A DNA stretch of 64,000 nt, from positions 1-64,000 of the forward strand of contig CBDBLV010000003.1 in NCBI GenBank assembly GCA_965207225.1, read 5' to 3'. A program made the position numbers and the translations under genes. A model generated the notes under the pieces. The model searched no databases. It saw nothing but the letters and a program-made list of their open reading frames with translations, and was not told where the DNA came from. Origin of the DNA: Dehalococcoidia bacterium (GTDB lineage Bacteria > Chloroflexota > Dehalococcoidia > Plut-88900). Shown here piece by piece: positions 11,493-57,196 of this stretch; the stretch's first letter is position 1; the number at the start of each line of letters is the position of its first letter.

Positions 11493-11544
11493 GGTTCTGT
11501 CTACCGTCAAAATAGGCCCACCAGACTTGATAAAATCAAGAACC
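11493..11544. other. hybrid serine-recombinase att site A (left junction of element 1a)
   Basis: GGTTCTGTCTACCGTCAA-aata-GGCCCACCAGACTTGA-TAAAATCAAGAACC; shares a 16-bp core with 24842-24857 and has reciprocal arms. Confidence 0.9.
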
Positions 11545-36400: not shown

Positions 36401-39400
36401 GGTTCTCGACCACCGACGCGGACACCGGCCCCATCAGCTACAACACCATCGCCAGCACCCAGGACCACGCGTTCTACGGCATCTCGCCCCTGTTCCGGGT
36501 CGAGCCCACGCCGGTGAACGCGCCGCCCGGCGAGCCGGCGGTGATGAGCAACCTGGGCCAGGCGGACGGCGCGGCGTTGACCGTGACGACTGCCAGTACC
36601 GTACGTGACCGCGCGCAGTCGTTCCGCACCGGCAAGAACGGCGGCCACTACCGCCTCAACAGCGTCGACGTCGAGTTTGCCGAGATCGGCGACTCCGACG
36701 CCGCCCGTGATCTGAGGGTACAGATCTGGGCCGGCTCCGGCGGCTCGCCGGGCAGCACCGCCGCCGACGTCCTGGCCGACCTGGCGCGCCCCTCCATGCC
36801 GGTGGGCAGCGCCGACCGGACCTTCACCTTCACCTACCAGGGCGACGACGGTTCGGGGCTGCGGCTTGAGCCGAACACCACCTACTGGGTGTATGTATAC
36901 GACGCGTCCGTGCAGCCCAACAGCACGTACACCCTTCGCGCCACCGCGTCGAACTCCGAGCGCCTGCAGGGCCTGCGCCTGCCCGAGGGCTGGAGCATCG
37001 GCGACGGCCACAGTTCCTGGTCGCTCTACCCCAACCCCGCCGTCTCCTGGAGCACCCACTCCGAGGCGCTCAAGATCGGCCTGAACCTGGGGGCCGCCGA
37101 CGCCTTCGTGCAGTTCCGCACCTGCGCGGGCACGGTGTCGGGCAACGACTGCGACACGGGCTGGGTGATCGCCAACTACAACAGGCACGACCCGCCGCCG
37201 ACGATCACGCTGACCGAGGGCGGCCCGGCGGTGACCTACCAGTGGCAGGCGGTGGACCCCCACGAGCGCCGGCACTTCTACGTCGCCAGCCAGGTGGCTG
37301 AGCCGCTCAGCCACTTCGGCGGCTACATCGGGCCGGGCAAACCGGACCGGGACCGGCTGATGTGCCACACCGGGAGCCGCAGCCCCTACAACCTGGGCGA
37401 CCCCATCGTCGAAGGGCTTGGCCGGGATGGGATCAACTTCGGCTACGGGAGCACCGCCGGCCCGCTGCTGGACCGCCACGACGGCTGCCCCTTCTCGTCG
37501 CAGTCCGTCTACGAGAGCGACGCCAACAAGTGGCGTCCGGTGAGCCTCGCCGCGGGCCAGGACAGCGACGCCTTCGACCACGGGACGTTCCTGATCCACC
37601 GGCCCCACGCCGTCGGCCACAACTTCTATGAAAATGGCGTGCTGTACCAGGTGGGAGGCTTCGACTACCCCGAGGTGCGGGTGCCGCTCATCATCAGGGA
37701 CGACGACGAGTGGGAGCAGACCCTGGAGTTCTCCATCGACGACGGGACCACCTGGACGTCCATCGAGGACGGCGGGCTCAATCTGGCCTTCCCGGCCTCG
37801 CTGAACACGGGGCGCAAGGCGCACTACTTCTGGGTGCGGACGAAGAACGACCCGCCGGCGGACCAGGACAAGCGCTTCTCCATCAGCGCCGACTTCGCCA
37901 AGCCGCTGTTGCGGAGCGGCACGTCGGAGTACTTCCGGTCCCACCGGGTCTGGTTCACCAGCCCCGCCGCCTCGCACCTGCACACCTTCAGAACTGACTC
38001 TGCCGTCAGCGCCGGCTCGGTCACGGTCGGCCGCACGCCGGTCCAGGTCGACATCCACGTCGGCGCCAACGTGGTCGGCAACGTGACCTTCCAGGTCGAG
38101 GGCTACAAGCTGTACGAGCGCAGCGACAACCAGATCTCGACGGAGACGCCGCCGAAGACGGTGCGCACCGACAGCTTCAGCTTCCACCGCACGCTGGGCT
38201 CCTGCGTGGGCTGCCAGCGGCTGCTGGGCGACCTGCCCGACCCGGTGGTGGAGCGCGTGGGCGATTTGAGCTACGCCAACCTGTCCGACACGGGCATCGA
38301 CCTGAGCTGGCCGCAGGTGGTCGGCGCCGAGGGCTACGAGGTGCGCTACTGGTCCACCACCTCGCCCTTCCCCGGCGTCCCGGCCGACGAGGCCTGGTTC
38401 GGGGCCGAGCCCAACGACCCGGCCTGGAACATCCGCCACCTGGAGCCGGACACCGAGTACCGGGCGGTGGTCTACTACGCCGACCACGGCGCGACGCAGC
38501 TGAGCACCGCCAGCCCGGTGATTCGCTTCACCACCCTTGCGGCGGGCTCGCCGGTGGAGGCGGAGCCCACGTCGGTGATCGTGGAGCGGGTGCCCGAGGT
38601 GTCGATCAGCGCCGCCGGCGGGACGATCACCGAGGGCGAGGACGCGGTCTACACGGTCACCGTGAACCCCGCGCCCGACGCGCCGCTGGACGTCAGGGTG
38701 GGCGTGGCCGGCCCCGGCTCCGTGGTCGCCGCCCAGCACCTGGGCGAGCGCACGGTCAACGTGCCCACCGGCGGCAGCGTCTCGTTCACCATCCCCACCG
38801 TCGACGACACCGGTTGGGGCTCCAACGGGATGCTCGGCGCGACGGTGCAGTTCGGCGAGGGCTACCGGCTGAACAGGTTCAGGAGCTACGCCTCGGTCTA
38901 TATCGCCAACAACGACCTGCCGCCGCCGCCGCCGGTCCAGCTCAAGCGCGTCTCCGACACCACGGCGACCGTCGCCTGGAAGCCGCAGGGGGACGGCGCG
39001 TCCTACCTGGTCGTCTGGCACGAGAGCTTCACGGGCGTCCCGGTCCTGACGGAAGTCACGACCACCGCCACCGAGCACCAGCTCACCGGCCTTAATCCGC
39101 AGTCGCATTACGTGGTCTCCGTCCTTCACGGGACGACCCAGCTGGACAAGATCACCGTGCGGACCCTGGCCGCCGGCGCGACGCCGAAGACCTTCACGGT
39201 GGACTTCGAGACGCCCGCGCCCAACACGTCCGTGCCGCTGATCAGCGTGACCGCCGACGGCAACGTGACCGAGGGCGGGGACGCGACCTTCACGGTCAGC
39301 GCCAACCCGGCCCCGGCTGCGGACCTGGACGTGAGCGTCACGGTGTCGCAGAGCGACGACTCCGGGATATCCATAGAACATCGGACGGTGACCATCCCGA

Positions 39401-41979
39401 CTGCGGGCTACGCCACGCTGACGGTGGCCACCACCAACGACGAGGTGGACGAGCCCGACGGATCGGTCACGGTCACCGTCGACGCCAGCGCCAACCTCGA
39501 ATACCGGGTGTCCTCGTCCCAGGGGACGGCCGTCGTGGTCGTGTCCGACGACGACGGCGGCTACACGGTCAACCAGGGAACGATCGCCAGGGTCAAGGAG
39601 CTGGCGTCGCAGACGCAGCACGGCGCGGCCCACGTGAACCGCTGGAACCGGGTGCTGCTGGCCTTCGGCGAGCACGACGGGACCGGCGTCACCGGCGGCC
39701 CGATGACGGCGGCCGAGGCCCAGGACATGGCCGACAATCACAGCAGCCCCGTCTGGGACCTGGTGGTCGTCGAGCTGACGGCCCTGGAAGCGGCCGCGGC
39801 ACAGACGCCGCCGCCGCCGCCCACGCCCGAGGTGAGTATCACCGCTGGCAGCGGGGTGACCGAGGGCGGCGACGCCACCTTCACGGTGACGGCCAGCCCG
39901 GCCCCGACCGCGAACCTGGACGTGAGCGTCACGGTGTCGCAGAGCGGCGACTACGGCGCGACCACGGGCCAGCGGACGGTGACGATACCCACCTCGGGCA
40001 GCGTCACCCTGACTGTCGCTACCACCGACGATACTACCGACGAAACCGACGGGTCGGTCACCGCAACGGTGAACGCGGGCAGCGGCTACACGGTGTCCTC
40101 GTCCCAGGGCGCGGCCACGGTCGGCGTCGCAGACAACGACGACCCGGTCGTTGAGGAGCAGACGGGCTACACGGTGGACCCGGACGTGATCGCGAAGGTC
40201 AGGGAGCTGGCGTCGCAGACGCAGCATGGCACGGCCCACGTGAACCGCTGGAACCGGGTGCTCGTCGCCTTCGGCGAGCACGACGGCACCGGCGTCACGG
40301 GCGGCCCGATGACGGCGTCCGAGGCGCAGGAGATGGCGAACCGGCACAGCAGCCCGGTGTGGGACGAGGTGGTGACCGAGCTGACGGCCCTGGAGGCGGC
40401 GGCGGCGCAGACGCCGCCGCCGCCGCCCACGCCTGAGGTGAGCGTCACTGCGGGCAGCGGCATCACCGAGGGCGGCAGCGCCACCTTCACGGTGACGGCC
40501 AGCCCGGCCCCGGCGTCCAACCTGGCGGTGAGCGTCACGGTGTCGCAGAGCGGCGACTACGGCGCCACCACGGGCCAGCGCACGGTGACGATACCCACCA
40601 CGGGCAGCGTCACCCTCACCGTCGGCACCACCGACGACGCCGCCGACGAGACCGACGGCTCGGTGACGGCCACGGTGAACGCCGGCAGCGGCTACACCGT
40701 GTCCTCGTCCCAGGGCGCGGCCACGGTGGCGGTGTCCGACAACGACGACGCCCCCACGCCGGTGGTGAGCGTCACCGCGGGCAGCGGCATCACCGAGGGC
40801 GGCGACGCCGTCTTCACGGTGACGGCCAGCCCGGCCCCGGCGTCCAACCTGGACGTGAGCGTCACGGTGTCCCAGAGCGGCGACTACGGCGCGACCACGG
40901 GCCAGCGCACGGTGACCGTCCCCACCACGGGCAGCGTCACCCTCACCGTTGGCACCACCGACGATACTACCGACGAGACCGACGGGTCGGTGACGGCGAC
41001 GGTGAACGCGGGCAGCGGCTACACGGTGTCCTCGTCCCAGGGCGCGGCCACGGTCGGCGTGGCCGACAACGACGCCGCCCCCACGCCGGTGGTGAGCGTC
41101 ACCGCTGGCAGCGGGGTGACCGAGGGCGGGGACGCCGTCTTCACGGTGACGGCCAGCCCGGCGCCTTCGTCCAACCTGGCGGTGAGCGTCACGGTGTCCC
41201 AGAGCGGCGACTACGGCGCGACCACGGGCCGGCGGACGGTGACGATACCCACCACGGGCAGCGTCACCCTCACCGTCGGCACCACCGACGATACTACTGA
41301 CGAGACCGACGGGTCGGTGACGGCCACGGTGAACGCGGGCAGCGGCTACACGGTGTCCTCGTCCCAGGGCGCGGCCACGGTCGGCGTTGCCGACAACGAC
41401 GACGCCCCCACGCCGGTGGTGAGCGTCACCGCTGGCAGCGGGGTGACCGAGGGCGGGGACGCCGTCTTCACGGTGACGGCCAGCCCGGCGCCTTCGTCCA
41501 ACCTGGCGGTGAGCGTCACGGTGTCCCAGAGCGGCGACTACGGCGCGACCACGGGCCGGCGGACGGTGACGATACCCACCACGGGCAGCGTCACCCTCAC
41601 CGTCGGCACCACCGACGATACTACTGACGAGACCGACGGGTCGGTCACCGCGACGGTGAACGCGGGCAGCGGCTACACGGTGTCCTCGTCCCAGGGCGCG
41701 GCCACGGTCGGCGTGGCCGACAACGACGATGCTGCGCCGGAGGTGGAGATAACCGTCACCGTCGAGGCCGCGTCGGCGGTGGAGGGCGACGTGCTGGAGT
41801 TCCGGGTGCGGCTGTCCGAGGCGTCCACCGAGGAGATCAGGATCAGATGGAACACCGCGCCTGCGTACCACCTGCTGGACGACCGGGCGCACATGACCGA
41901 CTATCAGTACACGGAGGGTGAGCTGGTGTTCGCGCCGGGGGTGACGGAGCTGACGGCGGAGGTGTGGCTGGAGTACTGA
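33460..41979 (+). CDS. giant secreted adhesin-like protein (choice-of-anchor R-like repeats, lectin-like domain, FN3, Calx-beta repeats), 3'-truncated
   Basis: signal peptide; five SN.GQ...AQ.F.TG...Y.L.SVDV repeats; Calx-beta repeats; ends mid-domain at an att half-site. Confidence 0.88.
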   Translation: MRRPWTALLALALLAAFVTLSTEQADAQQASQTLTSNIGQAHSNADFDSIAHDNAQAFTTGSAARGYTLTSVDVVFRTISDASLASKLAVTINEDSGGEPGTVLGTLTNPGTIATGTNSFTHAGLELEAGTAYWVVVGPGGYTGALTGINWISLTASDAEDTGGADGWSIGDDGYQNAGGSWQMIQGSWNLRITIKGFATPPPPLVSNFGQANGGTGNFVQHDHAQAFTTGANAGGYTLTGVDFSFPQINDGALAGKLTAEIRSDSGGAPGAVVATLTKPGTIAAGTNSFTHSGVALAANTTYWAVLDVTLVLVPGANTIQNTASDAEDAGGADGWTIADDGHYRTWNTSGAWTSFSQSRKITIHGTAVETVETETFVANTGQADAGSVNLSNDIAQAFTTGSNSFGYSLRSVDVRFNAIQSGFSSSDLTASIHAASGGSPGSSLGTLTNPASFPVSSSDQTLTFTSTGIDLAANTSYFLVIDMSVSRGSSSLDYTVSDSEDSGGLPGWSISRNYLDRPVASTGGWGNAPNESLQISLDGLSKPEPPRVSILGGGAVTEGVSASFTLRAVPAPTADLPVSVTVATTGDFGYGALPTSVTIPASGTATLEIATTNDDVDEAHGSVTVTLVDGSDYDLATSLGTATVRVRDDDPPLVKNTGQSSGLVQGLHVDLAQGFDTGGNPSGYTLTSVDVAFNRSTEDFGSKLTVTVHKGANGAPGTVVGTLTNPDWVNRQAGTYSFTHPGVALEADTRYWVVLDAAGLTEGNSQVKFTQSNSEDEGAAPGWSINNDARIRAQGGGNWITLVGGSTLSMGVNGRLLPHADGSYTVPLDWPLKPLGLGAGETFRLLFMTEDHRDATAADIGVYDAHVREAARDGHAAVRRYADHFRVVGSTAAVDARDHTRTNPNNAGHTDAEVWWLNGERVAANNAGFWSDTWENWAMADRRFESGERSTSNDWPWTGTRTDGAKEANPLGASNARRGRFSTTDADTGPISYNTIASTQDHAFYGISPLFRVEPTPVNAPPGEPAVMSNLGQADGAALTVTTASTVRDRAQSFRTGKNGGHYRLNSVDVEFAEIGDSDAARDLRVQIWAGSGGSPGSTAADVLADLARPSMPVGSADRTFTFTYQGDDGSGLRLEPNTTYWVYVYDASVQPNSTYTLRATASNSERLQGLRLPEGWSIGDGHSSWSLYPNPAVSWSTHSEALKIGLNLGAADAFVQFRTCAGTVSGNDCDTGWVIANYNRHDPPPTITLTEGGPAVTYQWQAVDPHERRHFYVASQVAEPLSHFGGYIGPGKPDRDRLMCHTGSRSPYNLGDPIVEGLGRDGINFGYGSTAGPLLDRHDGCPFSSQSVYESDANKWRPVSLAAGQDSDAFDHGTFLIHRPHAVGHNFYENGVLYQVGGFDYPEVRVPLIIRDDDEWEQTLEFSIDDGTTWTSIEDGGLNLAFPASLNTGRKAHYFWVRTKNDPPADQDKRFSISADFAKPLLRSGTSEYFRSHRVWFTSPAASHLHTFRTDSAVSAGSVTVGRTPVQVDIHVGANVVGNVTFQVEGYKLYERSDNQISTETPPKTVRTDSFSFHRTLGSCVGCQRLLGDLPDPVVERVGDLSYANLSDTGIDLSWPQVVGAEGYEVRYWSTTSPFPGVPADEAWFGAEPNDPAWNIRHLEPDTEYRAVVYYADHGATQLSTASPVIRFTTLAAGSPVEAEPTSVIVERVPEVSISAAGGTITEGEDAVYTVTVNPAPDAPLDVRVGVAGPGSVVAAQHLGERTVNVPTGGSVSFTIPTVDDTGWGSNGMLGATVQFGEGYRLNRFRSYASVYIANNDLPPPPPVQLKRVSDTTATVAWKPQGDGASYLVVWHESFTGVPVLTEVTTTATEHQLTGLNPQSHYVVSVLHGTTQLDKITVRTLAAGATPKTFTVDFETPAPNTSVPLISVTADGNVTEGGDATFTVSANPAPAADLDVSVTVSQSDDSGISIEHRTVTIPTAGYATLTVATTNDEVDEPDGSVTVTVDASANLEYRVSSSQGTAVVVVSDDDGGYTVNQGTIARVKELASQTQHGAAHVNRWNRVLLAFGEHDGTGVTGGPMTAAEAQDMADNHSSPVWDLVVVELTALEAAAAQTPPPPPTPEVSITAGSGVTEGGDATFTVTASPAPTANLDVSVTVSQSGDYGATTGQRTVTIPTSGSVTLTVATTDDTTDETDGSVTATVNAGSGYTVSSSQGAATVGVADNDDPVVEEQTGYTVDPDVIAKVRELASQTQHGTAHVNRWNRVLVAFGEHDGTGVTGGPMTASEAQEMANRHSSPVWDEVVTELTALEAAAAQTPPPPPTPEVSVTAGSGITEGGSATFTVTASPAPASNLAVSVTVSQSGDYGATTGQRTVTIPTTGSVTLTVGTTDDAADETDGSVTATVNAGSGYTVSSSQGAATVAVSDNDDAPTPVVSVTAGSGITEGGDAVFTVTASPAPASNLDVSVTVSQSGDYGATTGQRTVTVPTTGSVTLTVGTTDDTTDETDGSVTATVNAGSGYTVSSSQGAATVGVADNDAAPTPVVSVTAGSGVTEGGDAVFTVTASPAPSSNLAVSVTVSQSGDYGATTGRRTVTIPTTGSVTLTVGTTDDTTDETDGSVTATVNAGSGYTVSSSQGAATVGVADNDDAPTPVVSVTAGSGVTEGGDAVFTVTASPAPSSNLAVSVTVSQSGDYGATTGRRTVTIPTTGSVTLTVGTTDDTTDETDGSVTATVNAGSGYTVSSSQGAATVGVADNDDAAPEVEITVTVEAASAVEGDVLEFRVRLSEASTEEIRIRWNTAPAYHLLDDRAHMTDYQYTEGELVFAPGVTELTAEVWLEY
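39560..41741 (+). repeat. intragenic tandem repeats: a 606-bp duplication then four 327-bp Calx-beta units
   Basis: unit starts at 40434, 40761, 41088, 41415 (period 327); 39828 to 40434 spacing is 606. Confidence 0.9.
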
Positions 41980-42023
41980 TAAAATCAAGAACCTTCGCAA
42001 TTTCCTTCAAGCTGGAGGTATAG
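41977..42023 (+). repeat. att right arm + integrase tail, copy 1
   Basis: TGATAAAATCAAGAACCTTC identical to 11528-11547; encodes IKSRTFAISFKLEV*. Confidence 0.9.
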
Positions 42024-42051
42024 TCGAGGCTCAGGAATTTGAGGTGGTCAA

Positions 42052-44625
42052 GTGAGATGTATCGTCCTCATTGGACTGATAGCCATTCTTATATTCCTCG
42101 TGGCAGGTTGTGGTGATCGCTACTCTACCCCCTCGCCCAGGGCTACTCAAGAGGCAACGGACACCAGCACCTCGACACCTGCCATCGGCGGCACCAACGC
42201 GTCCCAGTCACCCAGCGACGATATAGAGTTGGCTGGAGAGACCACATGGACCCTCGAATCGTTAGACGGTCAACCAGTCCTCGAAACGTCTGTAATAACG
42301 CTGAAGATTGGTGACAACTGGATTGACGGTATTGATGGATGCAACTCCTACAGCGGGCGATCCGAGGAGCGTACGCCTGTCACCGGTTCAGATGGGGTGT
42401 TCTCAATTCCACCCTTCGGAGTCACTGAGATGTTGTGCCCCGAGCCCGAGGGTGTCATGGACCAGGCCGATGCATATATGGCAGCCCTCGTGCAGGGGGA
42501 GAGGTTCCGCATTACCGATGACCGGCTGGAGATCCTCGACGGCGGCGGAGCGAGAAGACTGACTTTCGTCAGGCGGACGCCGCTGCCCGGGAGTCCCATT
42601 GACCTGAAGGGCACTGCTTGGCGGCTCCTCATCGAGGGTGGTGCGATGGACGGCGTTCGCGCACCGACCCTGGTCTTCTTGGATGATCGATTGGTCACCG
42701 GAGCGACTGCTTGTCGCAGCTACGTAGCGACGCACCAGGCGTCCGAGGGTGCTCTGAGGCTTCCAGGGAAGAGAACGTTAGGGTCCTCGCAATCATGGCA
42801 GTCGTGCGTAGAGCAAGAGCGGACTCTGGAGGTCGAGTTCACCGACTTTCTGACGTGGGCGAGGGAGTATTCGGTTGATGAGGAGGGAGGAGCGAGTCGC
42901 CTCAGAATCTGGAGCATCAAGGGCAAGACCCTGACCTTTGAGCCGCTGCCGCAGGCCGAGGACATATCCGACACGGATTGGTCCCTTACGGCGTTCGTCG
43001 AGCTCATGCTCGACTCCGGGATGTGGCACCACCGGACTGCCGAGGTGATCCAGGGGACCAAGATAACGATAGAGTTCGACGACCACGGCATCAGCGGATT
43101 CATGGGGTGCAACTCTTACGGGGGTCCGGCAATGTTCGAAAACGGATCGGTCACGGTGGATCGACAGTCCTTCTACTCTACGACGAAGCTGTGCGAAGTG
43201 CCGGAGGGTCTGACAGAGCAGGAAAAGCGCTACCTCTCTCTAGTACAGCGGGCCACACGGTATGGCATCTATGGCGACAGTCTGTTCATGCAGACGGATG
43301 ACGACGTGTTCCTGTTGTTCCAGGCCGAGGAGATGGCGGAAACGCCTGTTCCAGCTGCGGCTCCAGATGCACACCAACCCGCGATCCCGACTCCAGCGTC
43401 AGAGTCAAGCCCAGGGACCTTGTCAGCCAGAGAAGTCCTGGACTCAACGACCGCTGCCATGTCGGCACTGGACTCCGGGTATGTCGAGATAGAGGCGACG
43501 ACGAAGCTGTCGGCTGGGGACGGGTCGCAGCAGACCGTAACGATGGAGATAGTAGGTGACTTTCAAGCTCCTGCTCGAAGCCGGGTCAACATAAGCATCG
43601 GCGCCGACGACAACAGCACTGAGTTTGAGATAATCACCATTGAGGACACGACGTACCTGAATCTGCCCGATCTCGACAGGTGGGCTATCAGCACCGGTTC
43701 CATCACTCCTTACAGTGATCTGTTCTCGTTCGGCGCGTTCAGCACGGACTTTGACGCCGGGGTAGTCGCGTCCTTCGACTCGCCGATACGCCAGTTTTTT
43801 GCGGGTGAGAGTGTCCACTCCGTGAGGGGGCCAGTATCGGGGTATGCCCTGGCCGACCTGCTAGGCATCGTCGAAGATACCGATGGCGAAGACGTGGCCG
43901 AACTTGGCCAAGGCGTGGTCGAATTCTGGATTGGAGTCGATGACTTCCTAGTCCGGAAGATGGTGCTCGAGGCCGAACTGCCGGATGAGGAAGGCACCCT
44001 AAGCATGCAGATCATTATGGCGCTGTCTGATTTCGGCAAGCCTGTTGATATCCAGGTGCCCGATCCGGAGACGGGTGCCGACCAGCCGAGCGATCAGACT
44101 GGGGCAACCACGGAGGTTCTGGAGAACGGCTGGACCAGAGTTGACCTGACCCAGCAGGGTTTCGGGTTCGCCATTTCGGTGCCGCCGTCGTGGGAGTTGG
44201 ACACGACGAAAGACGAGGGGTTCAACCCGCGAAGTGCCCGCTGGCTCTTGGGCAAGGACACAACCGGCCCGGAATTCGATGGTATCCACCTGCTGTTCCA
44301 ACTCCAGATCGACCAGCTATTCTCTGCGTACGCCGACTTGGAGGAGTACACGGAAATCTACATAGCAAACACCGCCTTCTTCGCGGACATTGATGAGTCG
44401 GACATCGAGAGCGAGAAGGTCAGTCTGCCAGCAGTAGACGCTTTCGTTCAGAGCTTCTCAAACATCTCACCGACGCGAGGCATCCGGCTGTCACATGCTC
44501 AATACATCCTGGCGTATGGCGAAAACGCCTTCATCATCACCTTCACCTCACCGTCGGAAACCTTCGAGGAAGTGAGGCAGGTCCTTGAGCAGATCGCCGA
44601 GACGATAGAGTTGTACGACCCGTAA
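42052..44625 (+). CDS. lipoprotein with three META domains and a LppX/LprAFG-like region
   Basis: lipobox LVAGC; W.L...G..GCNSY.G...T..LC META motifs; FWIGVDDFLVRKM...LSDFGKPVDIQVP. Confidence 0.8.
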   Translation: MRCIVLIGLIAILIFLVAGCGDRYSTPSPRATQEATDTSTSTPAIGGTNASQSPSDDIELAGETTWTLESLDGQPVLETSVITLKIGDNWIDGIDGCNSYSGRSEERTPVTGSDGVFSIPPFGVTEMLCPEPEGVMDQADAYMAALVQGERFRITDDRLEILDGGGARRLTFVRRTPLPGSPIDLKGTAWRLLIEGGAMDGVRAPTLVFLDDRLVTGATACRSYVATHQASEGALRLPGKRTLGSSQSWQSCVEQERTLEVEFTDFLTWAREYSVDEEGGASRLRIWSIKGKTLTFEPLPQAEDISDTDWSLTAFVELMLDSGMWHHRTAEVIQGTKITIEFDDHGISGFMGCNSYGGPAMFENGSVTVDRQSFYSTTKLCEVPEGLTEQEKRYLSLVQRATRYGIYGDSLFMQTDDDVFLLFQAEEMAETPVPAAAPDAHQPAIPTPASESSPGTLSAREVLDSTTAAMSALDSGYVEIEATTKLSAGDGSQQTVTMEIVGDFQAPARSRVNISIGADDNSTEFEIITIEDTTYLNLPDLDRWAISTGSITPYSDLFSFGAFSTDFDAGVVASFDSPIRQFFAGESVHSVRGPVSGYALADLLGIVEDTDGEDVAELGQGVVEFWIGVDDFLVRKMVLEAELPDEEGTLSMQIIMALSDFGKPVDIQVPDPETGADQPSDQTGATTEVLENGWTRVDLTQQGFGFAISVPPSWELDTTKDEGFNPRSARWLLGKDTTGPEFDGIHLLFQLQIDQLFSAYADLEEYTEIYIANTAFFADIDESDIESEKVSLPAVDAFVQSFSNISPTRGIRLSHAQYILAYGENAFIITFTSPSETFEEVRQVLEQIAETIELYDP

Positions 44626-44637
44626 GGTGAGCTACCG

Positions 44638-44677
44638 TCTAGAACCTTCGGCAATTTCCTTTAAACTGGAGGTATAG
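44638..44677 (+). repeat. att right arm + integrase tail, copy 2 (degenerate)
   Basis: TCTAGAACCTTCgGCAATTTCCTTTAAACTGGAGGTATAG; copy 1 with a 1-bp insertion and few substitutions. Confidence 0.85.
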
Positions 44678-44710
44678 CCCATAGGCAATCGCTGATGGGC
44701 ACACGATGAG

Positions 44711-46150
44711 ATGAGACGTTGTGTGGCGCTCCTCCTATGCTCGCTGCCTGCGGCAGGAATCCGCTGGGCCGTGCTAATCGTCTCGTTGGCGGCTCTCGTG
44801 ATTTCGTTGTCGGCATGTAGCGACGAGTCGCCGATTCCCACCAACACCTCCACGCCAACCGTGACAGTCCCACCGACCTATAACCCCGGGCCTGCCCCGA
44901 CCTCGACTCCCACGCCGATCCCAACGGCCACGGCCACTCCTTCACCGACGCCTGTACCCATCGACACTCCCACACCCGCGCCTACGCCTACTCCCACGTC
45001 CACCCCAACGGCCACGGCTACTCCCACGCCAATCCCAACGGCCACGGCCACTCCTTCACCAACGCCAACCTCCACGCCCACACCTGTACCCACGCCAACG
45101 CCTCCTTCAAACACTAGGTTCTGGGAGCCGCTACGTCCAGCCTCTACTGAGTTCAACAGTTACCGGTCCCTCCAACATCCGCAGACGAGAGTCGGAGACC
45201 TCGTAGAGTTGCACCCGGTACAGTCCGAACACACCTCCACAATCAACCTTCCCTACGCCGGAGAGGTAGGACTGACCGTCCTCCGCGAAGGTCAGGAGCA
45301 TCCTGACACGACCGGCCTGATTGAAGCATCACTCCACAGGATTGAGGAGTTCATGGGATGGCCGTTCCCTGACGACCACGTCATCTACCACATGCACCAG
45401 CCACAGGACGGGGTCACCTCCTCGTACTTCTACGGCACTCACGTGCAAATCACCCTCGACTATCTGGGAGAGAAAGGACTGCACTACCCGCGCATCATCC
45501 AATGGAGCCGCGAGCCACTCATGCAGAGGGCAAACGGAGACCGGTATCGCAGCACCGGCTACACCACCAGCCCCATAACCGTGGTCGAGGCGGACGGTAC
45601 CACCTACACCAGGGGAGAACCCCGCCACATAGATGGGCAAAGCGCAGCATTAGGCAGAGCATTCTCAGGACTAGCCGTCCTCGCCCACGAAGCAGTCCAC
45701 TACTACTTCACGGGCGCGGGAGGTAACAGCGACAGTTACGCACCGTGGGTGGTGGAGGGGCCACCCGTATTCCTCACGTACCTCATCATCAAGCATCTCA
45801 ACCCGGAACTGCCGTTCCCCGACCTCAACACTTTCTACACCGCACATGATTTCAGCCTCTGCGAGGAAGATACGCTGGCAGAAACAGAGCGCATGGAAGA
45901 GTCATTTGAACGCTCAGATTGCATGTATCTGCTCGGCGGGCAACTCTTCGAGGACCTGCACAACCACATGGACGAGACCAACTTCCGCATGGGACTCAGG
46001 AGACTGTTCCTCCACACACGGGTCAACACCCCCGTGTGCGACAACGACCGAACCTCCATCTGCCACGTCAGAGAAGCCTTCTCCATGTATGCTTCGCCGG
46101 AGAAACGCCCCACCGTACAAGCTATCATCGAGCGGTGGTACGGTAACTAG
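44711..46150 (+). CDS. lipoprotein with Pro/Thr linker and HEXXH zinc metallopeptidase-like domain
   Basis: lipobox LSAC; (PT)n tract; [10 protein letters not shown]...WVVEG gluzincin-like motif. Confidence 0.8.
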
Positions 46151-46151
46151 A

Positions 46152-46211
46152 GGCCAACAGACTCGATAAGGTCAAGAATCCTTCACCTTGTGCTTCAAGT
46201 TGGAGCTGTAG
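46152..46211 (+). repeat. att core + right arm + integrase tail, copy 3
   Basis: GGCCAACAGACTCGATAAGGTCAAGAATC vs GGCCCACCAGACTTGATAAAATCAAGAACC; tail ...FTLCFKLEL*. Confidence 0.85.
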
Positions 46212-46222
46212 GAGGAAGCAAC

Positions 46223-46630
46223 GTGACCAGCAACGACATGGAGCTTGCCAGCCAGGGCCGCCGTCTCGCCGGATTCGTCTTGGACTGCTTCCTCGTTGTA
46301 CTCACGCTTGGCGTCGGCTGGGTCGTCTGGGATTTGATCGTGGCCCGGACTGGGCAGAGCCCTGCAAAGCGTCTATTGGGCACCCGCGTAATCCGCGATG
46401 ATGGAGCAGTAGCGGATCTGGGCTGGATGCTGATCAGGGACTTGGTAGTTCGAGGTGTCGCCTTCGGTGCGGTCTATGGAGTGCTGATGGCCGTGCTGGG
46501 TGAGGGAGTGGGCGGTGCCATCAACACCTTGGTGTTCACTCTGGCAACTCTGTGGTGTGTGTGGGATGCCAAGCGCCAATGCGTTTGGGACAAGATCGTG
46601 CGGACGCGGGTGGTTAGCTCCCGTGGCTGA
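46223..46630 (+). CDS. RDD family membrane protein
   Basis: LASQGRRLAGFVLD...GQSPAKRLLGTRVI...RQCVWDKIVRTRVV; GGAGG RBS. Confidence 0.85.
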   Translation: MTSNDMELASQGRRLAGFVLDCFLVVLTLGVGWVVWDLIVARTGQSPAKRLLGTRVIRDDGAVADLGWMLIRDLVVRGVAFGAVYGVLMAVLGEGVGGAINTLVFTLATLWCVWDAKRQCVWDKIVRTRVVSSRG

Positions 46631-46640
46631 GAGGGAGTTT

Positions 46641-47600
46641 GTGCTGCGCCTGTCGCAATTTTGTCTGATTCTCGTCGTGCTTCTCTTGGGGGGTTGCGTC
46701 ACTGACATAAACCCCTCTCTAACCGTAGTCCCGACCTCCACACCTGCTCCAACCTCTTCGCCGATACCGGAATCCGCAGTTACTGACACCCCGGTCATCA
46801 TTCCCACGGCCACTTCCGCACCCACAGTCACAGTCACGCCCAAGAGTGCCCGCGATTTGCCAACGCTGACGCCCACGCCCGCACTCACCCCTGATTCCTC
46901 AATATCTCCAAGCCCCCTTGCCTCAGATGTATGGCGTGGGCTTGTGGTCGCCCCGGAGGCCCGATGCTCGCCTTACGATCCTGACGACTACCCTTATTCG
47001 CAGTCTGTCGAGCGACACATCGTCGCCGGCATGGGCGGCATCGTCTACGGCCCATACACGGGGGTATGGTTCGATAGCACGTCCGAGACTGACATTGAGC
47101 ATATCGTCGCTCGCTCCGAGGCACACGACAGCGGGCTGTGCGCGGCGGATGCCGAAACCAGACGACGGTTTGCTTCCGACCTGATCAACCTCACACTGGC
47201 CAGTCCCTCGGTGAATCGCCACCAGAAAAGTGGCAGGGACGCCGCTGAATGGATCCCCGACCTGAATCAGTGCTGGTTCGCTAATCGCGTCGTCGAGGTT
47301 CGACAGAAGTATGACCTGACCATCGACGAACGCGAAAGTGACGCACTGGAGAACATCTTGTCGGGTTGCACGTCCACTGAGATGATTGTGCGAGAAGCTT
47401 CCCAGGCCCCGACGCCGACTCCCGTTGCTGTGCAAGGAGACGGGGCAGCCAACAACGCCCTTGAGATGTACGACGACAATGGGAACGGTCGCATAACCTG
47501 CGCAGAGGCGCGCAACCACGGCATTGCTCCCGTGCACCGTGGGCATCCCGCATATGAGTACATGAACGACGCCGACAACGACGGCGTGGTCTGCGAGTGA
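46641..47600 (+). CDS. lipoprotein with HNH/DUF1524-like nuclease and excalibur Ca-binding domain
   Basis: lipobox LGGC; DIEHIVARSEAHDSG...NL...VNRHQKS; C-terminal DADNDGVVCE. Confidence 0.85.
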   Translation: MLRLSQFCLILVVLLLGGCVTDINPSLTVVPTSTPAPTSSPIPESAVTDTPVIIPTATSAPTVTVTPKSARDLPTLTPTPALTPDSSISPSPLASDVWRGLVVAPEARCSPYDPDDYPYSQSVERHIVAGMGGIVYGPYTGVWFDSTSETDIEHIVARSEAHDSGLCAADAETRRRFASDLINLTLASPSVNRHQKSGRDAAEWIPDLNQCWFANRVVEVRQKYDLTIDERESDALENILSGCTSTEMIVREASQAPTPTPVAVQGDGAANNALEMYDDNGNGRITCAEARNHGIAPVHRGHPAYEYMNDADNDGVVCE

Positions 47601-47682
47601 CGAGGCGTCTCTCGGTCCAATAGTGGCAAGGCCAAGGGGGTGAAGGAGTGCCCAGAACGGCCTGAGCGAGACTGGGCGAGCG

Positions 47683-47725
47683 AAATCTCAGAGTATTCAT
47701 CTTGTGCTTCAAGCTGGAGCTGTAG
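47683..47725 (+). repeat. att arm remnant + integrase tail, copy 4 (most degenerate)
   Basis: AGAGTATTCATCTTGTGCTTCAAGCTGGAGCTGTAG; RVFILCFKLEL*, nearly identical to the copy 3 tail. Confidence 0.8.
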
Positions 47726-47868
47726 TCCCGGCCACCTTCCTAGTCCCCCGCATGTGGGCACCAAGGCCACTTTTACTCCGTGAAATTGCAACACGGGCCA
47801 GTCATTGCTATAGTGGAATCTGGAGAGGGCCAGATTGTTACTTGCCTTCTCGTAGCATCCACAGGGAA

Positions 47869-48327
47869 ATGTCGGTGGCCAAGAGAGCAAGGTTCGATGG
47901 TGACGCCTTCTATGCTGCCCTTGACGGGGAGAGGCAAGCACGCCAGTACACCTGGAAGCGAGTGGCAGAAGAGAGCGGAGTCAGTGCGTCCACCCTCACG
48001 CGTTTCTCTCAGGGCAAGCGTCCTGATGTAGATGGCCTTGCCTCGCTTTCAGCATGGTCTGGCTTGGATGTTGACAGGTTCTTCAGAGGTGGTGATGCCA
48101 AGAAGGAGCCAGAGCCGCTGGCGTTGATTTCGTCCTGTCTCCGTTCCGATCCTCGGTTGAACGTGGACTCCGCCATAGCAATTGACCAGATGGTGAAAGC
48201 GGCCTATAGAAGTATGAGCGGCCCAGATGAAGAAACGGAGGACTCATTCACGCCTGAGACAGCGACTACCATGAGCGAGGAAGTCACCGAGGCGCTCAAT
48301 GAAGGCACAGACAGGAGATTGCCTTGA
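47869..48327 (+). CDS. XRE-type HTH regulator upstream of the RM genes
   Basis: TWKRVAEESGVSASTLTRFSQGKRPDVD; overlaps methylase start. Confidence 0.8.
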   Translation: MSVAKRARFDGDAFYAALDGERQARQYTWKRVAEESGVSASTLTRFSQGKRPDVDGLASLSAWSGLDVDRFFRGGDAKKEPEPLALISSCLRSDPRLNVDSAIAIDQMVKAAYRSMSGPDEETEDSFTPETATTMSEEVTEALNEGTDRRLP

Positions 48328-49694
48328 ACAAGGTGGACCTAAGCCCCGGTTACGAACTTCAGATTGAGGATAACGGTGGCCGACTTGGCACGATGCGTGC
48401 AGCATTGCGAGCGGACTTGGATTTCCACGGCGCCAACGGCAGCTACGGGTCTCATGCCTGGCACCCCTTTCCCGCAAAGTTTCCGCCGCAGTTGCCGGAG
48501 TTCATGATTCGCCAACTCTCGGACCCGGGCGACCTAGTTTTCGATCCTATGCTCGGCTCTGGGACGACACTCGTTGAAGCTCTCCGCCTCGGACGTCGAG
48601 CGGTTGGTTGCGACATCGACCCCTTGGCGCGACTGATTGCGGAAACTAAGTTGACTCCCATAGACCCCATCGCCGCCCTCCATGAGGGCAACAGGATATT
48701 GGCTGAGGCAATTGACGACTACCACACTTCCCGCCCGAGGCTGCAAAGAGACCTTGAGTTACGATTCGACGCTAAGACTGCGCAGTTCATCGACTACTGG
48801 TTCCTTCCCCAGCAACAGCTTGAACTCCTTGCTCTGGTGCAGCGTATTGATGCTTTGCCGGAAGGAGGTACGCGAGATTTCCTCAAGGTGGCATTCTCTT
48901 CGACCATTATTGCCAAGTCTGGTGGAGTCTCGTTGGCCCGCGACCTAGCCCACACGCGTCCCCACCGAGATACAGAGAAGACGCCCACGTCGGCCTTCGT
49001 GGAGTTCGGCAAGCGTCTAGAACGCAATGTCGCAGCCTTCAGAAGGGACGAATCGATCGACGCCGCCATGCCGTTCTGTCTCAATGGCGCTAGTGAACGA
49101 GAATCCTCTCTCTCAGCGTCCATCCACACAGCGAGTGCCGCAGACACTGGTTTGCCCGACACAAGCATCGACTTGATTGTGACGTCCCCGCCCTATGCCA
49201 ACAATGCAATCGACTATATGCGCGCTCACAAGTTCTCGCTGGTGTGGTTCGGCTGGAAGATCGCCGACCTGAGCCGGCTTCGCGCTCGATACGTGGGCCA
49301 CGATGCCTTATCCGGCCTGCGCAGCGATGCGCTGCCTAACCAGTGCGAAGAGACCTTGGACAGACTGGCAGACCTCGACGACAGGAAAGCACTGGTGTTG
49401 CGTCGCTATTTCCAGGAGATGAAGACGGTCATCGCCGAGATGGAACGGGTCCTGAAGGAAGGCAGGCCAGCTGTGATAGTCGTCGGCTCGTCAACGCTTC
49501 GGGGCTTGGACGTGGAGACACACAAGGGGCTCGCCGCAATCGGCGAAGATGTGGGCCTTGTCCTAGCCGGGATTGGCACCCGTCTCTTGGATCGTGACAA
49601 GCGCATGATGCCAGCACGATGGGGTAGCCGACGACATTCCCAGATCGAAGAGCGCATGCATAAGGAGTACGTGATCGGACTGGTGAAGCCGTAA
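48324..49694 (+). CDS. amino DNA methyltransferase, probably N4-cytosine
   Basis: HPFPAKF, FDPMLGSGTT (motif I), VTSPPY (motif IV). Confidence 0.88.
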   Translation: MNKVDLSPGYELQIEDNGGRLGTMRAALRADLDFHGANGSYGSHAWHPFPAKFPPQLPEFMIRQLSDPGDLVFDPMLGSGTTLVEALRLGRRAVGCDIDPLARLIAETKLTPIDPIAALHEGNRILAEAIDDYHTSRPRLQRDLELRFDAKTAQFIDYWFLPQQQLELLALVQRIDALPEGGTRDFLKVAFSSTIIAKSGGVSLARDLAHTRPHRDTEKTPTSAFVEFGKRLERNVAAFRRDESIDAAMPFCLNGASERESSLSASIHTASAADTGLPDTSIDLIVTSPPYANNAIDYMRAHKFSLVWFGWKIADLSRLRARYVGHDALSGLRSDALPNQCEETLDRLADLDDRKALVLRRYFQEMKTVIAEMERVLKEGRPAVIVVGSSTLRGLDVETHKGLAAIGEDVGLVLAGIGTRLLDRDKRMMPARWGSRRHSQIEERMHKEYVIGLVKP

Positions 49695-50530
49695 TGCCTG
49701 GCAGGATCGAAGCTCTTCGGCGGGCCTACCACCGCGAGATTGCCAATAGAGTCCTGCGGCAGAATCCGTCCGGCGTGCCGAATAACGCCGATAGCGGTAG
49801 TGCTTCAAGTGTGCGGATTGCCAAGGGCATTGTTCAGCATATTGGGCTTCCTCTGGGGTCCGACAAGCTGGCGGGACAGACGGCGGGACATCGCTTCGAA
49901 GAGGCCACAAAGAACTTCCTGCGTGAAGCATTTGGGTTGCTTTCTCATCTACGGCCTGGGGAGTGGGAATTCTCACTGGGCGGGAACATCCGCGACTACG
50001 AGCAATACTTACACTTATCAGACGTGCGACGGATGGTCGAGCAGCATGAGGAACTGCGGATTATCTTCGGTGACTATATTGTGACGCCTGACATCGTTGT
50101 CTGCCGGGAGCCGGTTTCAGACTCCACGATCAACGAGAAGGAAGCTCTGCTCAATGACGACACCGTGGCAAGCTACACGCCACTGCGTCGCGCCAACTCA
50201 CAGGCGAGTATCCTCCACGCGAGCGTGTCCTGCAAATGGACGATTCGCAGTGACCGGTCCCAAAACGCACGCACCGAAGGCTTGAACCTCGTGCGCAACC
50301 GTAAGGGTAAGACGCCGCACATAGTCGTCGTCATAGGAGAACCTCTTCCCGGAAGAATAGCATCGCTGGCCTACGGCACAGGCGACATTGACTGTGTCTA
50401 CCATTTTGCGCTTAGGGAATTGAAGACCGCGGTAGCAGGCAACGATTCGGATGCTGAACTGCTTGACACATTGGTCTCCGGCAGACGACTACGTGACATT
50501 AGTGACCTGCCGTTTGACTTGGCGACCTGA
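49694..50530 (+). CDS. NgoMIV-family type II restriction endonuclease
   Basis: PDIV...SCKWTIRSDRSQNARTEGLNLVRNRKG...GTGDIDCVYH. Confidence 0.9.
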   Translation: MPGRIEALRRAYHREIANRVLRQNPSGVPNNADSGSASSVRIAKGIVQHIGLPLGSDKLAGQTAGHRFEEATKNFLREAFGLLSHLRPGEWEFSLGGNIRDYEQYLHLSDVRRMVEQHEELRIIFGDYIVTPDIVVCREPVSDSTINEKEALLNDDTVASYTPLRRANSQASILHASVSCKWTIRSDRSQNARTEGLNLVRNRKGKTPHIVVVIGEPLPGRIASLAYGTGDIDCVYHFALRELKTAVAGNDSDAELLDTLVSGRRLRDISDLPFDLAT

Positions 50531-50533
50531 GGG

Positions 50534-52426
50534 ATGAGATGGATGTCGCCAAATGAAGCCTGTGGGCTGAAGCAAATCCCTCTGGCTCTAGCTTTGATTA
50601 TGGCGCTGTTTGTCCTGATCTCGTGCGACGATGATTCTATTCCATCCCCACAGCAGGACGCAAACGTCCCAGCCCCAGTCGCAGTGTTCCCATCCGAGTC
50701 AGATATTGAAACAGCCGCAGATGACAAGACAAGCTGGGATGCCTTCACTTCCATTAGCGCAGGAAGCACCCATAGCTGTGGAGTCAGGAACGACGGTAAC
50801 GTCATCTGCTGGGGAGACAGCGTCGGAGGGCAGGCCTCACCACCAACAGGCACGTTCACCTCGGTCAGCTCTGGATCGGCGCATACCTGCGGGCTCAGGG
50901 CAGACGGCTCCGTCGTCTGCTGGGGTGATGATTGGGAGGGTCGAGCCTCCCCGCCCGAGGGTGTCTTCATTTCAGTCAGCGTCGGACGACGTCACAGCTG
51001 TGGCGTGCGGGACGACAACTCCGTCGCTTGCTGGGGCTATGATGCACATGGCCGGTCTACTCCGCCTGAAGGCCACTTTATTGCAGTCAGCGCCGGGGAG
51101 AATCATACCTGTGCAGTGCGTGACAAAGGCACACTAGCCTGTTGGGGTTATGACAGCCATGTCCAGACTTCCCCGGGAGACAGTTTCATCTCTGTCAGTG
51201 TAGGGCGGCTCCACACTTGCGGGCTGAGAGAAGACGGCTCTTTCGTCTGCTGGGGTGGTGATCTTGATGGCCATGTCTCCCCGCCGGAATATCACTTCAC
51301 CTCGGTCAGTGTCGGGTCGTACCAAATCTGCGGCCTGAAGGATGACGCTTTCGTTACGTGCTGGGGTGATGATCCCTATGATCAGGCCCCCTTCGCTCAG
51401 ACTCCCACGCCGGAGGGTTCATTCATCTCGGTGAGCAGCGGGGGAAACCATACCTGCGGAGTTCGGGAGGATGCCTCTGTCACTTGCTGGGGCTATGACC
51501 GGTATGGTCAGGCTTCACCTCCCGCAGGCAGTTTTGCTTCCGTAGATGCAGGGGAATACCAAGTTTGCGCAGTTAGATACGACAAGTCTCTGGCCTGCTG
51601 GCGCGGAACTGAAATCGACATGCCAGCAGGCATCTTCGCATCAGTCAGTGCTGGAGGGCACCAAGTCCCGCGCCGTTGGAATCCTCCTGCCTGCACGCAA
51701 GAACCCTGTCCCACTCTGGTACCCCCGCCACCTTTTGAATCCCTCAGGCACACCTGCGGGGTGCGCGACGATGGTTCTATCGTCTGCTGGGGCAATGACG
51801 AATATGGCCAAGCCTCCCCGCCCGAGGACACGTTCATCTCTGTCAGTGCCGGGGGAAATCACACCTGCGGAGTGCGAGTCAACGGTTCGGTGGCCTGCTG
51901 GGGAAACGATACTCATAGACAAGCCAGCCCCCCATCAATGGCCTTCATTTCGGTTAGTTCCGGAGGAGGACATGGCCACGTTGGGCAGGCAGACCTAGTT
52001 GAAGCCGCCCACACCTGTGGGCTGAGGACAGACAGAGCCGTCGTCTGCTGGGGTGATGACCGGTATGGTCAAGCCTCCCCGCCCGAGGGCACATTTACGT
52101 CGGTCAGTGCGGGAGGCCACCACACCTGTGGGCTGAGGGACGATGGCTCCGTCGTCTGCTGGGGTGATGACTGGCATGGTCAGACTTCCCCACCGGAGGG
52201 CACATTCACATCCCTCAGTGCAGGAGGCCACCACACCTGTGGCGTGCGGGATGACGGTTCGATAGCCTGTTGGGGCAATGATTACGATGGCCGAGCCTCT
52301 CCGCCCCACGGCTCTTTTGTTTGGCTGGACTGCGGAGTGGGGCACTCCTGCGGGATAAGGGACAACGGTTCCATCATTTGCTGGGGAAGATTTGCAATGG
52401 TGGTACCCGCGGCATCTGGGCACTAG
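50534..52426 (+). CDS. RCC1/BLIP-II repeat beta-propeller lipoprotein
   Basis: lipobox LISC; many F.SVSAG..HTCG.R.DGSV.CWG.D..GQASPP repeats. Confidence 0.9.
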   Translation: MRWMSPNEACGLKQIPLALALIMALFVLISCDDDSIPSPQQDANVPAPVAVFPSESDIETAADDKTSWDAFTSISAGSTHSCGVRNDGNVICWGDSVGGQASPPTGTFTSVSSGSAHTCGLRADGSVVCWGDDWEGRASPPEGVFISVSVGRRHSCGVRDDNSVACWGYDAHGRSTPPEGHFIAVSAGENHTCAVRDKGTLACWGYDSHVQTSPGDSFISVSVGRLHTCGLREDGSFVCWGGDLDGHVSPPEYHFTSVSVGSYQICGLKDDAFVTCWGDDPYDQAPFAQTPTPEGSFISVSSGGNHTCGVREDASVTCWGYDRYGQASPPAGSFASVDAGEYQVCAVRYDKSLACWRGTEIDMPAGIFASVSAGGHQVPRRWNPPACTQEPCPTLVPPPPFESLRHTCGVRDDGSIVCWGNDEYGQASPPEDTFISVSAGGNHTCGVRVNGSVACWGNDTHRQASPPSMAFISVSSGGGHGHVGQADLVEAAHTCGLRTDRAVVCWGDDRYGQASPPEGTFTSVSAGGHHTCGLRDDGSVVCWGDDWHGQTSPPEGTFTSLSAGGHHTCGVRDDGSIACWGNDYDGRASPPHGSFVWLDCGVGHSCGIRDNGSIICWGRFAMVVPAASGH

Positions 52427-52570
52427 CGACTGCTTGGCGATCTATTCGCTCGGCTTGCTGGTCGCACGACCTTAAGAGTAGTCCAAGAGAACTGGGCCTG
52501 CCGGATTCCGCCCACAGCCACTGACACGCAGCAGTTGCCCATCGAAGCGCTTCCTCGCTACAGTCAAACC

Positions 52571-54301: not shown

Positions 54302-54860
54302 CGTGATACATAGATAGCACCGATGCGTCGCTATCTGCCCTCCCTGCTGTCTGGGGGCCGTAAAAGTGGACATTTTGTCCAGTAGGCGGGGTCTGGAGGG
54401 GGCCGAAGACCGGTCATTTGCCCCTGATTCAGCTACGAAACGGCCTTTCGGACCCCTCGACCGGTCAACGACTGAAAATGCAAGTCTCGGAGAAGCTATG
54501 CTAAAATACGTCACCGCTCAAAACACGCCCGAATTGCACTTTTACCACCTCGACCGGTCAGCCGTTGGAGGGGGATTTAGCTACGGATGCCCCTGTCCGT
54601 GGAGTCTGAGGCATCGATTGGGACATGATCTGGAACTCCAGTGGCGTCCCCGGCCCACGTTGGCCCACCGGAAATTGCAGGAATTGAGGTGGGGGTGTGC
54701 GACGCGAAACGGGGTGGTGGGCAGGAACGGACATTTCGGGCCACGCAGGTTTGGATTTATGCAACGATCGGGGAGATTGGCTAAAAATTGTGACCGGTCG
54801 GTGTCAAGGGCTGGTTCCGCCGAAAATTGCAGAAGCGGCCCATCCCAATAGAGGACGAAA

Positions 54861-55764: not shown

Positions 55765-55959
55765 AGACAGCGTCGCAGGCGCATCAATGCAGGGAGAACT
55801 GGCAGTGGGATTAACGTTGACTGTGACGCTTCGAGGTTGCCTCACCCGCGAGCTAAGTAATATGATTCAGATAGGTATCACCGAGTAAGCAGCGTGCGTT
55901 TGGCAAGCAAGGAACCGAATTGACAGAGGCGAGTTTGCACTGCGGGATCAGGTGTAGTT

Positions 55960-57178: not shown

Positions 57179-57196
57179 AATAGGAGGTAGGAGAGA

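Follow-up and report, generated by a model that had tools for sequence, protein, structure and literature searches.

How did four short direct repeats, each set ahead of a different gene, come to stand in a row in a Dehalococcoidia genome, and are the genes between them mobile cassettes? The repeats lie at 41977 to 47725 of a 64,000-nucleotide (nt) stretch of contig CBDBLV010000003.1 (positions 1 to 64,000; referred to below as the window). A first-pass annotation, made from the sequence alone, had interpreted them as an undescribed integron-like platform, in which a large serine recombinase (LSR) repeatedly inserts units of one integrase tail and one gene into the attachment site at its own 3' end. 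In our best reading, 41977-59001 is a single composite island that can no longer move, from a family of mobilisable elements with CcrB-like LSRs. We consider it probable that site-specific recombination at a self-regenerating tRNA-like site brought in islands, next to one another or nested, and that redundant backbone and integrase modules were lost afterwards.

The repeats themselves were readily recovered. The motif CTTYAARYTGGAGSTRTAG matched the window four times, always on the + strand (at 42005, 44659, 46193, and 47707), when 0.01 matches were expected, and none of 100 shuffles gave four or more matches. The same four copies were found as one family (D13) in a general repeat search of the window. 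Alignment of the copies showed that the similarity reaches about 25 to 40 nt upstream of CTTYAARYTGGAGSTRTAG. The repeats are about 60 nt long, start at 41977, 44626, 46152, and 47667, and all terminate, as read from the sequence, in F-K-L-E-(V/L)-TAG. They begin 0, 12, 1, and about 70 to 80 nt, respectively, after the preceding stop codon. The four copies and their position at gene boundaries, both described by the first-pass annotation, are real. The G+C content is about 58% at 42 to 59 kb versus about 70% on the left side. The four copies are as follows.

41977..42023, + strand: copy 1, a truncated right half-site from TGATAAAATC with an intact tail open reading frame (ORF) ending in FKLEV-TAG; left end of element B
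44626..44677, + strand: copy 2, a partial tail with no core, its frame broken by a 1-nt insertion
46152..46211, + strand: copy 3, a complete half-site that retains both the central CC and its inner arm, AACAGAC, and is out of frame owing to a 1-nt insertion in the outer arm
47667..47725, + strand: copy 4, whose 3' 30 nt equal those of copy 3 at 28 of 30 positions and whose half-site part is degenerate (15 of 30)

All four copies were homologous to the genuine left end of a sister element, element A, at 11513-11575, which is the fifth copy to which the first-pass annotation had alluded. Element A extends over about 11.5 to 24.9 kb and element B over about 41.98 to 59.0 kb. Their recombinase genes and junctions are arranged as follows.

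11463..11575, no strand assigned: intact left junction of element A, in which the tail of a type-2 LSR (- strand, 11463-11515) stands back to back with the core and type-1 tail (11513-11575)
23261..24943, + strand: type-1 LSR of element A, with a right junction comprising the left arm (24820-24831) and the core (24842-24857)
24814..26505, - strand: type-2 LSR, convergent with the integrase of element A
57337..59073, + strand: type-1 LSR of element B, with the left arm GGTTCTTGATTT at 58950-58961 and the shared core at 58972-58987
58944..60557, - strand: type-2 LSR, convergent with the type-1 integrase of element B; the 3' ends of the two genes overlap at the core

Both 23261-24943 and 57337-59073 encode the Resolvase (PF00239), Recombinase (PF07508), and zinc ribbon (PF13408) domains, a set common to both LSR types. 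The two type-1 LSRs of the window are 89% identical to each other, and the type-2 LSRs are about 56% identical to type 1. The best NCBIfam match of both types was CcrB (E value of 1.4e-47), at 162.6 bits, far short of the cutoff of 900 bits, so that they are not Ccr orthologues.

A 16-nt core was common to 11513-11575 and to the integrase 3' ends at 24820-24871 and 58950-59001. The outer arms were exact inverted repeats, with GGTTCTTGATTT preceding the core in the integrase and AAATCAAGAACC following it in the tail. The attP and attB sites of LSRs are about 40 to 50 bp long and have imperfect inverted arms around a central dinucleotide, and the arm-core-arm layout found here is that of an attP site whose two halves were separated upon integration, one going to each junction. 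A comparison of 18 left with 9 right junctions placed the point of exchange at the CC before ACCA in a core that copies a tRNA 3' end (GGCCCACCA). In the tail, AAATCAAGAACC is followed by about 10 further codons and a stop, and the integrase frame is carried on for about 14 codons to this stop; in the integrated state, both integrases instead run 35 codons past the core, antisense into the neighboring LSR gene. GGTTC lies 31 nt from CCA in the integrase arm and 25 nt from it in tRNA genes, which appears to match a rule attributed to Rutherford and Van Duyne, whereby attP half-sites are reportedly longer than attB half-sites. By this comparison of junctions, each repeat is the right half of an attachment site plus the last 14 or so codons of an LSR, and the LSR attachment site sits within the 3' end of the LSR gene itself, as the first-pass annotation had proposed. 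The tyrosine integrase and hairpin sites of integrons, which that annotation had not seen, did not turn up here either. Pfam detected no tyrosine-recombinase domain in the 11 ORFs scanned between 42052 and 59073 (for three small ORFs, NCBIfam alone was used), and the single-strand DNA folds of the five tails were not better than those of shuffles (z = -0.17, 0.68, -0.54, 2.48, and -0.95).

LSR-like ORFs of about 400 amino acids (aa) that match only residues 144 to 540 of the query, without the catalytic resolvase domain, were seen at G000:C2:150894-152124 and also in the genomes G010 and G011. They still run intact through the core into a type-1 tail and could be DNA-binding-only relatives or remnants.

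The genes following the repeats correspond to those named by the first-pass annotation, as judged from Pfam matches and, in the case of the HEXXH lipoprotein, from an HEAVH sequence. With the adjacent backbone and the neighboring giant gene, they are as follows.

42052..44625, + strand: unit 1 cargo, a META-domain (PF03724) lipoprotein of 857 aa
44711..46150, + strand: unit 2 cargo, a lipoprotein of 479 aa with HEAVH at residue 326 and no Pfam or NCBIfam family
46223..47600, + strand: unit 3 cargo, an RDD membrane protein (up to 46630) followed by a lipoprotein (ORF 46500-47600) that has GmrSD_C (HNH-type) and Excalibur domains
47704..50530, + strand: unit 4 cargo, a helix-turn-helix (HTH) protein (weak match), an N6_N4_Mtase DNA methylase, and an NgoMIV-type restriction enzyme
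50534..52426, + strand: RCC1-repeat protein, also cargo
52496..55776, + strand: conserved backbone of the element family, with a MarR-like/Replic_Relax protein (52535-54301) and small ORFs
33460..41979, + strand: giant repeat protein gene of the neighboring type-2 element, with its last 35 codons lost and fused to copy 1

The backbone at 52496-55776 was 76 to 84% identical to about 10 other loci of the genome. No relatives of the HEXXH lipoprotein were found in genome contigs or metagenome contigs. The cargo of element A (12106-18125 and 22193-23260) is defense-like, with an MmeI/N6_Mtase-type protein, a PIN protein, an Eco57I-type methylase, and a YaaC-like protein.

Next, the state of each copy was examined. 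In copy 1, homology to real left ends begins only at TGATAAAATC, and the crossover is gone. The giant gene reads on for 35 codons past the breakpoint of the window in all seven of its other genomic copies, and in two of them about 170 nt after the gene end are followed by a type-2 tail, the core, and a type-1 tail. A 299-nt deletion in the window joins ...GAGTAC of the giant gene to TGATAAAATC, and copy 1 lacks the crossover because this deletion removed it. The TGA that had been counted as the stop preceding copy 1 thus belongs to the tail, to which the truncated giant gene is fused. The first-pass annotation had regarded copy 1 as the intact one that would rejoin the integrase upon circularization. 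Its tail ORF is intact, but with the crossover lost, site-specific rejoining is impossible, and element B cannot excise precisely via copy 1. Copy 2 is tail-like only from about 44638, at TCTAGAACC, and a by-eye reading of the alignment found matches at 3 of 11 positions of its inner half-site. Only copy 3 keeps the crossover core (GGCC-AACAGAC) that the first-pass annotation had reported for it, directly after the stop codon of the HEXXH gene. The junctions of copies 1 and 2 are ordinary deletions with an end point in the half-site.

Two side observations concern copies 2 and 3. The unusual arm of copy 2 had no match in metagenome contigs. A shorter pattern of this arm gave 65 matches in genome contigs over unrelated phyla, and these were dismissed as chance because of that spread and because none of the three Dehalococcoidia matches was at a tail. 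A variant junction, AGAGG-CC-AACA, is common to copy 3 (46152) and to the tails behind Excalibur genes at loci L052 and L057 (G006 and G002), and the similarity of copy 3 to these loci thus extends a few bases to the left of the crossover.

Sister arrays in the same genome were compared with that of the window. The segment C5:1944396-1947097 was 93% identical to 41977-44679 (tail, META gene, tail), with an intact core and the tail of another LSR on its left. The homology between the two arrays ends 2 nt past the TAG of copy 2 and resumes in the middle of the Excalibur gene, over 46802-47672, ending at the start of copy 4. Since breakpoints occur inside genes (46802) and not at tails alone, the window and C5 arrays differ by gene-internal mosaics and not by clean cassettes. 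In the array at C4:709019/707164, an RDD paralogue (74.5% nt identity) follows the second tail, and on the left side this internal tail is bordered by 152 nt of the Replic_Relax backbone gene, 81% identical to 52769-52920. This fragment is joined to the tail at a CC that the intact gene also has, and the join is a recombinase-type junction within the backbone of a former element. The first-pass annotation had held backbone remnants between the copies to be incompatible with its cassette model. One was thus found in the C4 array, although not in the array of the window. The alternative that the same annotation had mentioned, namely tandem whole elements trimmed by deletion, fits better. In Logan contigs from four runs of one sample, which cannot reveal rare circles, no joint was found at any tail within 41800-59300. 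The joints that were seen (e.g., 47586 to 52761, with a side of 21) had short sides and lay in repeated backbone or RCC1 sequence.

To what sites do these elements attach? A profile built from the five window tails was searched against the 4.03-Mb genome (E ≤ 2e-4) and gave 18 matches, 13 of which were new. The units stand in direct order, as the first-pass annotation had stated, and similar arrays exist elsewhere. The genome also contained 13 type-1 and 19 type-2 LSR matches (about 32 LSR genes), with seven convergent overlapping LSR pairs. Type-2 LSRs that are unpaired with type 1 adjoin seven tRNA genes (Ile, Ala, Lys, Val, Gln, Val, and Met), and at these junctions the core is the tRNA acceptor end plus CCA. 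The tail was fused straight to a tRNA 3' end in 7 of 40 flanks from relatives, to that of tRNA-Lys at locus L017, and, across the class, for 15 of the 88 tails at 80 loci. ARAGORN detected no tmRNA gene in the window; the targets are tRNA genes and LSR 3' ends, not ssrA. By these junctions, the natural target is the 3' end of a tRNA gene (CCACCA) or the tRNA-like 3' end of another LSR gene. The right-hand flank of the target was unconserved past ACCA(G) in all four elements with a non-LSR right neighbor, and the tRNA-side half appears to be the part that matters. Because only this half is conserved, a tRNA/tail junction would again be a target after each integration, which explains why elements accumulate in chains. 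A chain on C5 runs from tRNA-Val to a type-2 element with the giant gene, a tail-to-tail junction, and a type-1 element, and on the contig of the window type-1 and type-2 elements alternate. An insertion of type-1 elements into an intact type-2 site was also considered; after comparison of the type-2/tRNA junctions, it was replaced by serial integration at the tRNA-proximal junction.

The chains of the genome show both integrase-to-integrase and tail-to-tail junctions. The giant gene (2,839 aa, fn3/repeat, about 70% G+C) has eight copies in the genome (in the window and on C2, C3, C4, and C5), at least two of which lie about 290 nt upstream of a tail-to-tail junction. It appears to be cargo of tRNA-targeting type-2 LSR elements.

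LSR elements of this family are widespread in Dehalococcoidia. The tail model (R1) matched 14 of 41 relatives and 29 of 151 genomes of the class, and an exact degenerate tail pattern was found in at least 83 stretches, nearly all from Dehalococcoidia or Chloroflexota. Two or more tails were present at 8 of the 80 loci. In G008, four tails stand within 3.9 kb, with no LSR within 20 kb; its unit 2 encodes a META protein with 72% identity to the first 425 residues of that of the window, and the genes after its fourth tail are on the opposite strand. The META gene was found in only 2 of 201 genomes of the class. At L126, a tRNA-Val/tail junction is followed by a 234-aa ORF and a second tail, 2 nt after the stop codon, and L118 has a similar arrangement. 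At L141, tRNA-Val and four tails occupy 3.2 kb, and 6 kb of sequence there contain no LSR. In both L126 and L141, the tRNA-adjacent unit, which is expected to be the newest, has no integrase. At L052 and L057, a tail begins 5 nt past the stop of an Excalibur gene. An intact LSR runs into a tail at L029, and the flanks of L032 and L038 resemble, by eye, decayed LSR 3' ends. At L142 (G124:C1:1034901-1043900), a 7.3-kb segment contains three tRNA-Ala genes, and a tail follows two of these; the islands at this locus seem to produce a duplicate of the entire tRNA gene.

What the repeats are, how the site is built, the targets, the chains, the deletions, and the backbone remnant of the sister array are shown by these data, and from them a history of the island can be proposed. 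Integration leaves a right arm and tail at the far (left) end of the element, and the integrated integrase reads on into foreign DNA. Every integration would restore a usable target, so that elements pile up in chains. The four tails would then be the left ends of four arrivals, adjacent to one another or inside another's cargo, and three of the four may later have lost their backbone and integrase modules. Some of these losses could have occurred by recombination at the core (copy 3 and C4:707164) and others by plain deletion ending in a half-site (copies 1 and 2). A loss at the core might have involved recombination between a reconstituted integrase-plus-tail site and a weak site in the same element, or a nested insertion followed by homologous recombination between backbones. 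It is the order of these events and the manner in which integrase modules were removed that we infer.

Several findings weigh against such a history. No backbone or integrase remnant is present between the four copies of the window, and the same is true of the four-tail array of G008. Random trimming does not predict the tight packing of one-gene units whose stop lies 1 to 12 nt from the next tail, as seen for copies 2 and 3 and, with the spacings of 2 and 5 nt given above, at L126 and at L052 and L057. The META gene or its homologue is flanked by tails on both sides in two species, with different neighbors. At least six internal tails keep their sequence exactly to the crossover, with unrelated DNA on the left, and no left arm of the integrase or tRNA type was recognized by eye beside internal tails; the only hint of one was a CGTCCA hexamer at the right distance from tail 2 of L017.

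These findings bring back a true cassette system, in which integrase-less minicircles of one or two genes with a core, a right arm, and a tail would be moved in trans by resident LSRs. Each circle would donate a new tail upon entering either an integrase 3' end or the tRNA-proximal junction. Small integrase-less units between tails do recur in independent genomes (G008, L126, L118, and L141), loci with at least two tails make up a tenth of the set, and units without an integrase occupy the tRNA-adjacent position at two of them. Such a system would also be consistent with the tight packing together with the retained crossover, with the META units in different surroundings in two species, and with the roughly 32 LSR genes of the genome, which could act in trans. 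However, only one of the four window copies has the crossover, copies 1 and 2 are deletion junctions, and on C4 a backbone remnant adjoins an internal tail. No unit recurred in identical form at a second position; the most similar pairs were those of META (72% aa) and RDD (74.5% nt). Homology between arrays stops at tail 3' ends or within genes and not at cores, the supposed circles have no conserved left arm in our by-eye reading, and the units are not all co-oriented, as the genes after tail 4 of G008 show. We therefore regard a cassette system as unlikely. The same doubt attaches to its wider form, in which CcrB-like LSRs across Dehalococcoidia would keep arrays of trans-mobilized one-gene units, both at tRNA genes and at the 3' ends of the LSR genes themselves, with only a right half-site and a spare integrase C terminus per unit. 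One good half-site per partner would then be enough, and the arrays would be a double-strand, serine-recombinase analogue of the integron.

The tails could also be a shared front end, i.e., a leader or regulatory module of lipoprotein and other accessory genes that is shuffled by homologous recombination or gene conversion among paralogous elements, its origin from an attachment site being only historical. Of the five genes located behind or between tails, three encode lipoproteins, and the mosaic breakpoints fall at tail 3' ends and inside genes. Adjacent tails are alike in their 3' halves and not in their half-sites (26 of 30 versus 15 of 31 positions for copies 1 and 2; 28 of 30 versus 15 of 30 for copies 3 and 4), which suggests that conversion acted locally or that the two halves are under different constraints. 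Uniform decay does not account for this match of neighboring tails in the 3' 30 nt alone. Against a front end, tails also precede genes for an RDD protein, a methyltransferase, and a nucleosidase-like ORF, and across the tail family it is the recombinase half-site, not the 3' half, that is better conserved. A scan for promoters and terminators found nothing within any tail (two promoter-like sites in 6.5 kb, with 2.0 expected), and Rfam gave no family in 41000-60000. An RNA or regulatory reading of the tails was rejected on these grounds and because their folds were like those of shuffles (z from -0.95 to +2.48), and we consider the front-end explanation very improbable. The sole promoter-like site near a tail, at 47786-47814 (TTGCAA, 17 nt, TATAGT), lies 60 nt downstream of copy 4, ahead of about 47869, where the HTH gene probably has its actual start.

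The composite island was then compared with known systems. Integron arrays resemble it in having ordered, mostly co-oriented small units with remnants of recombination sites next to one recombinase gene. Here, in contrast, there is no tyrosine IntI, no folded attC, and no attI/Pc platform. In the staphylococcal cassette chromosome (SCC) and SCCmec, each element brings along the final bases of the gene that it targets and thereby restores the target, new elements stack beside old ones, and some units have no recombinase genes. The LSRs of these elements (CcrAB and CcrC) belong to the same broad branch as those of the window, for which CcrB was the best match. The present scores, however, are far below the CcrB cutoff, the target is not rlmH, and what is restored is the C terminus of the recombinase itself or a tRNA end. 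The accretion model for ICESt1/CIME, associated with Pavlovic and colleagues (2004), is said to involve integration beside a resident element, giving tandem arrays with internal attachment sites. Loss of the recombination module would reportedly leave nonautonomous units able to travel with a neighbor, in a system that is said to rely on a tyrosine integrase and an attachment site outside the gene. In our arrays, direct attachment-site repeats likewise separate the units, and arrays start at tRNA genes in L017, L126, and L141. The site, in contrast, lies inside the gene of a serine integrase, so that a clean loss of the integrase needs explaining.

The closest parallel comes from Dehalococcoides, in which ssrA islands stacked in tandem carry DsiB, a serine recombinase of the CcrB-like kind (McMurdie et al. 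2011, PMC3146451). In that text, the dsiB gene always overlaps attL and has no stop codon of its own, and the requisite 3' fragment is suggested to be on a circular form or an adjacent island. Fifteen ssrA islands without an integration module are read there as cis-mobilisable elements arising from accretion. The islands of the two systems occur in the same class and share LSR islands at a tRNA-like 3' end, tandem stacks with direct repeats between them, and an integrase that overlaps the attachment site without a stop codon of its own, as do both window integrases. The present elements differ in targeting tRNA genes and LSR 3' ends instead of ssrA, in a repeat of about 60 nt with a recognizable coding tail versus one of 20 bp, and in type-1 elements that put the tail, not the integrase, beside the tRNA. 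Their units can consist of a single gene (0.8 to 2.7 kb), and no second small recombinase (DsiA) was among the window ORFs scanned. The LSRs studied here are likened to DsiB by its description as CcrB-like. The claim of an undescribed integron-like platform is thus not upheld: three of the four copies have no usable crossover, two junctions are deletions, and the principle, i.e., stacked LSR islands with a shared integrase 3' fragment, is already known from the ssrA islands as described in that text. A literature search at the level of titles and abstracts found no described LSR cassette array and no LSR inserting into an LSR gene. What is new are the tRNA and LSR 3'-end targets, the alternating chains, the coding tail in the repeat, the one-gene units, and the spread across the class.

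Taken together, the locus shows how the widespread and little-studied LSR islands of soil and marine Dehalococcoidia build large accessory regions, which hold lipoproteins, restriction systems, and giant surface proteins, by re-using a tRNA-like site within the integrase gene. Its anatomy, with a left arm, a CC crossover, a right arm, and a tRNA target of which one half matters, predicts sites for new LSRs, enzymes that are of interest as genome-engineering tools. If one-gene units did move independently, they would represent a second, mechanistically different route to cassette arrays.

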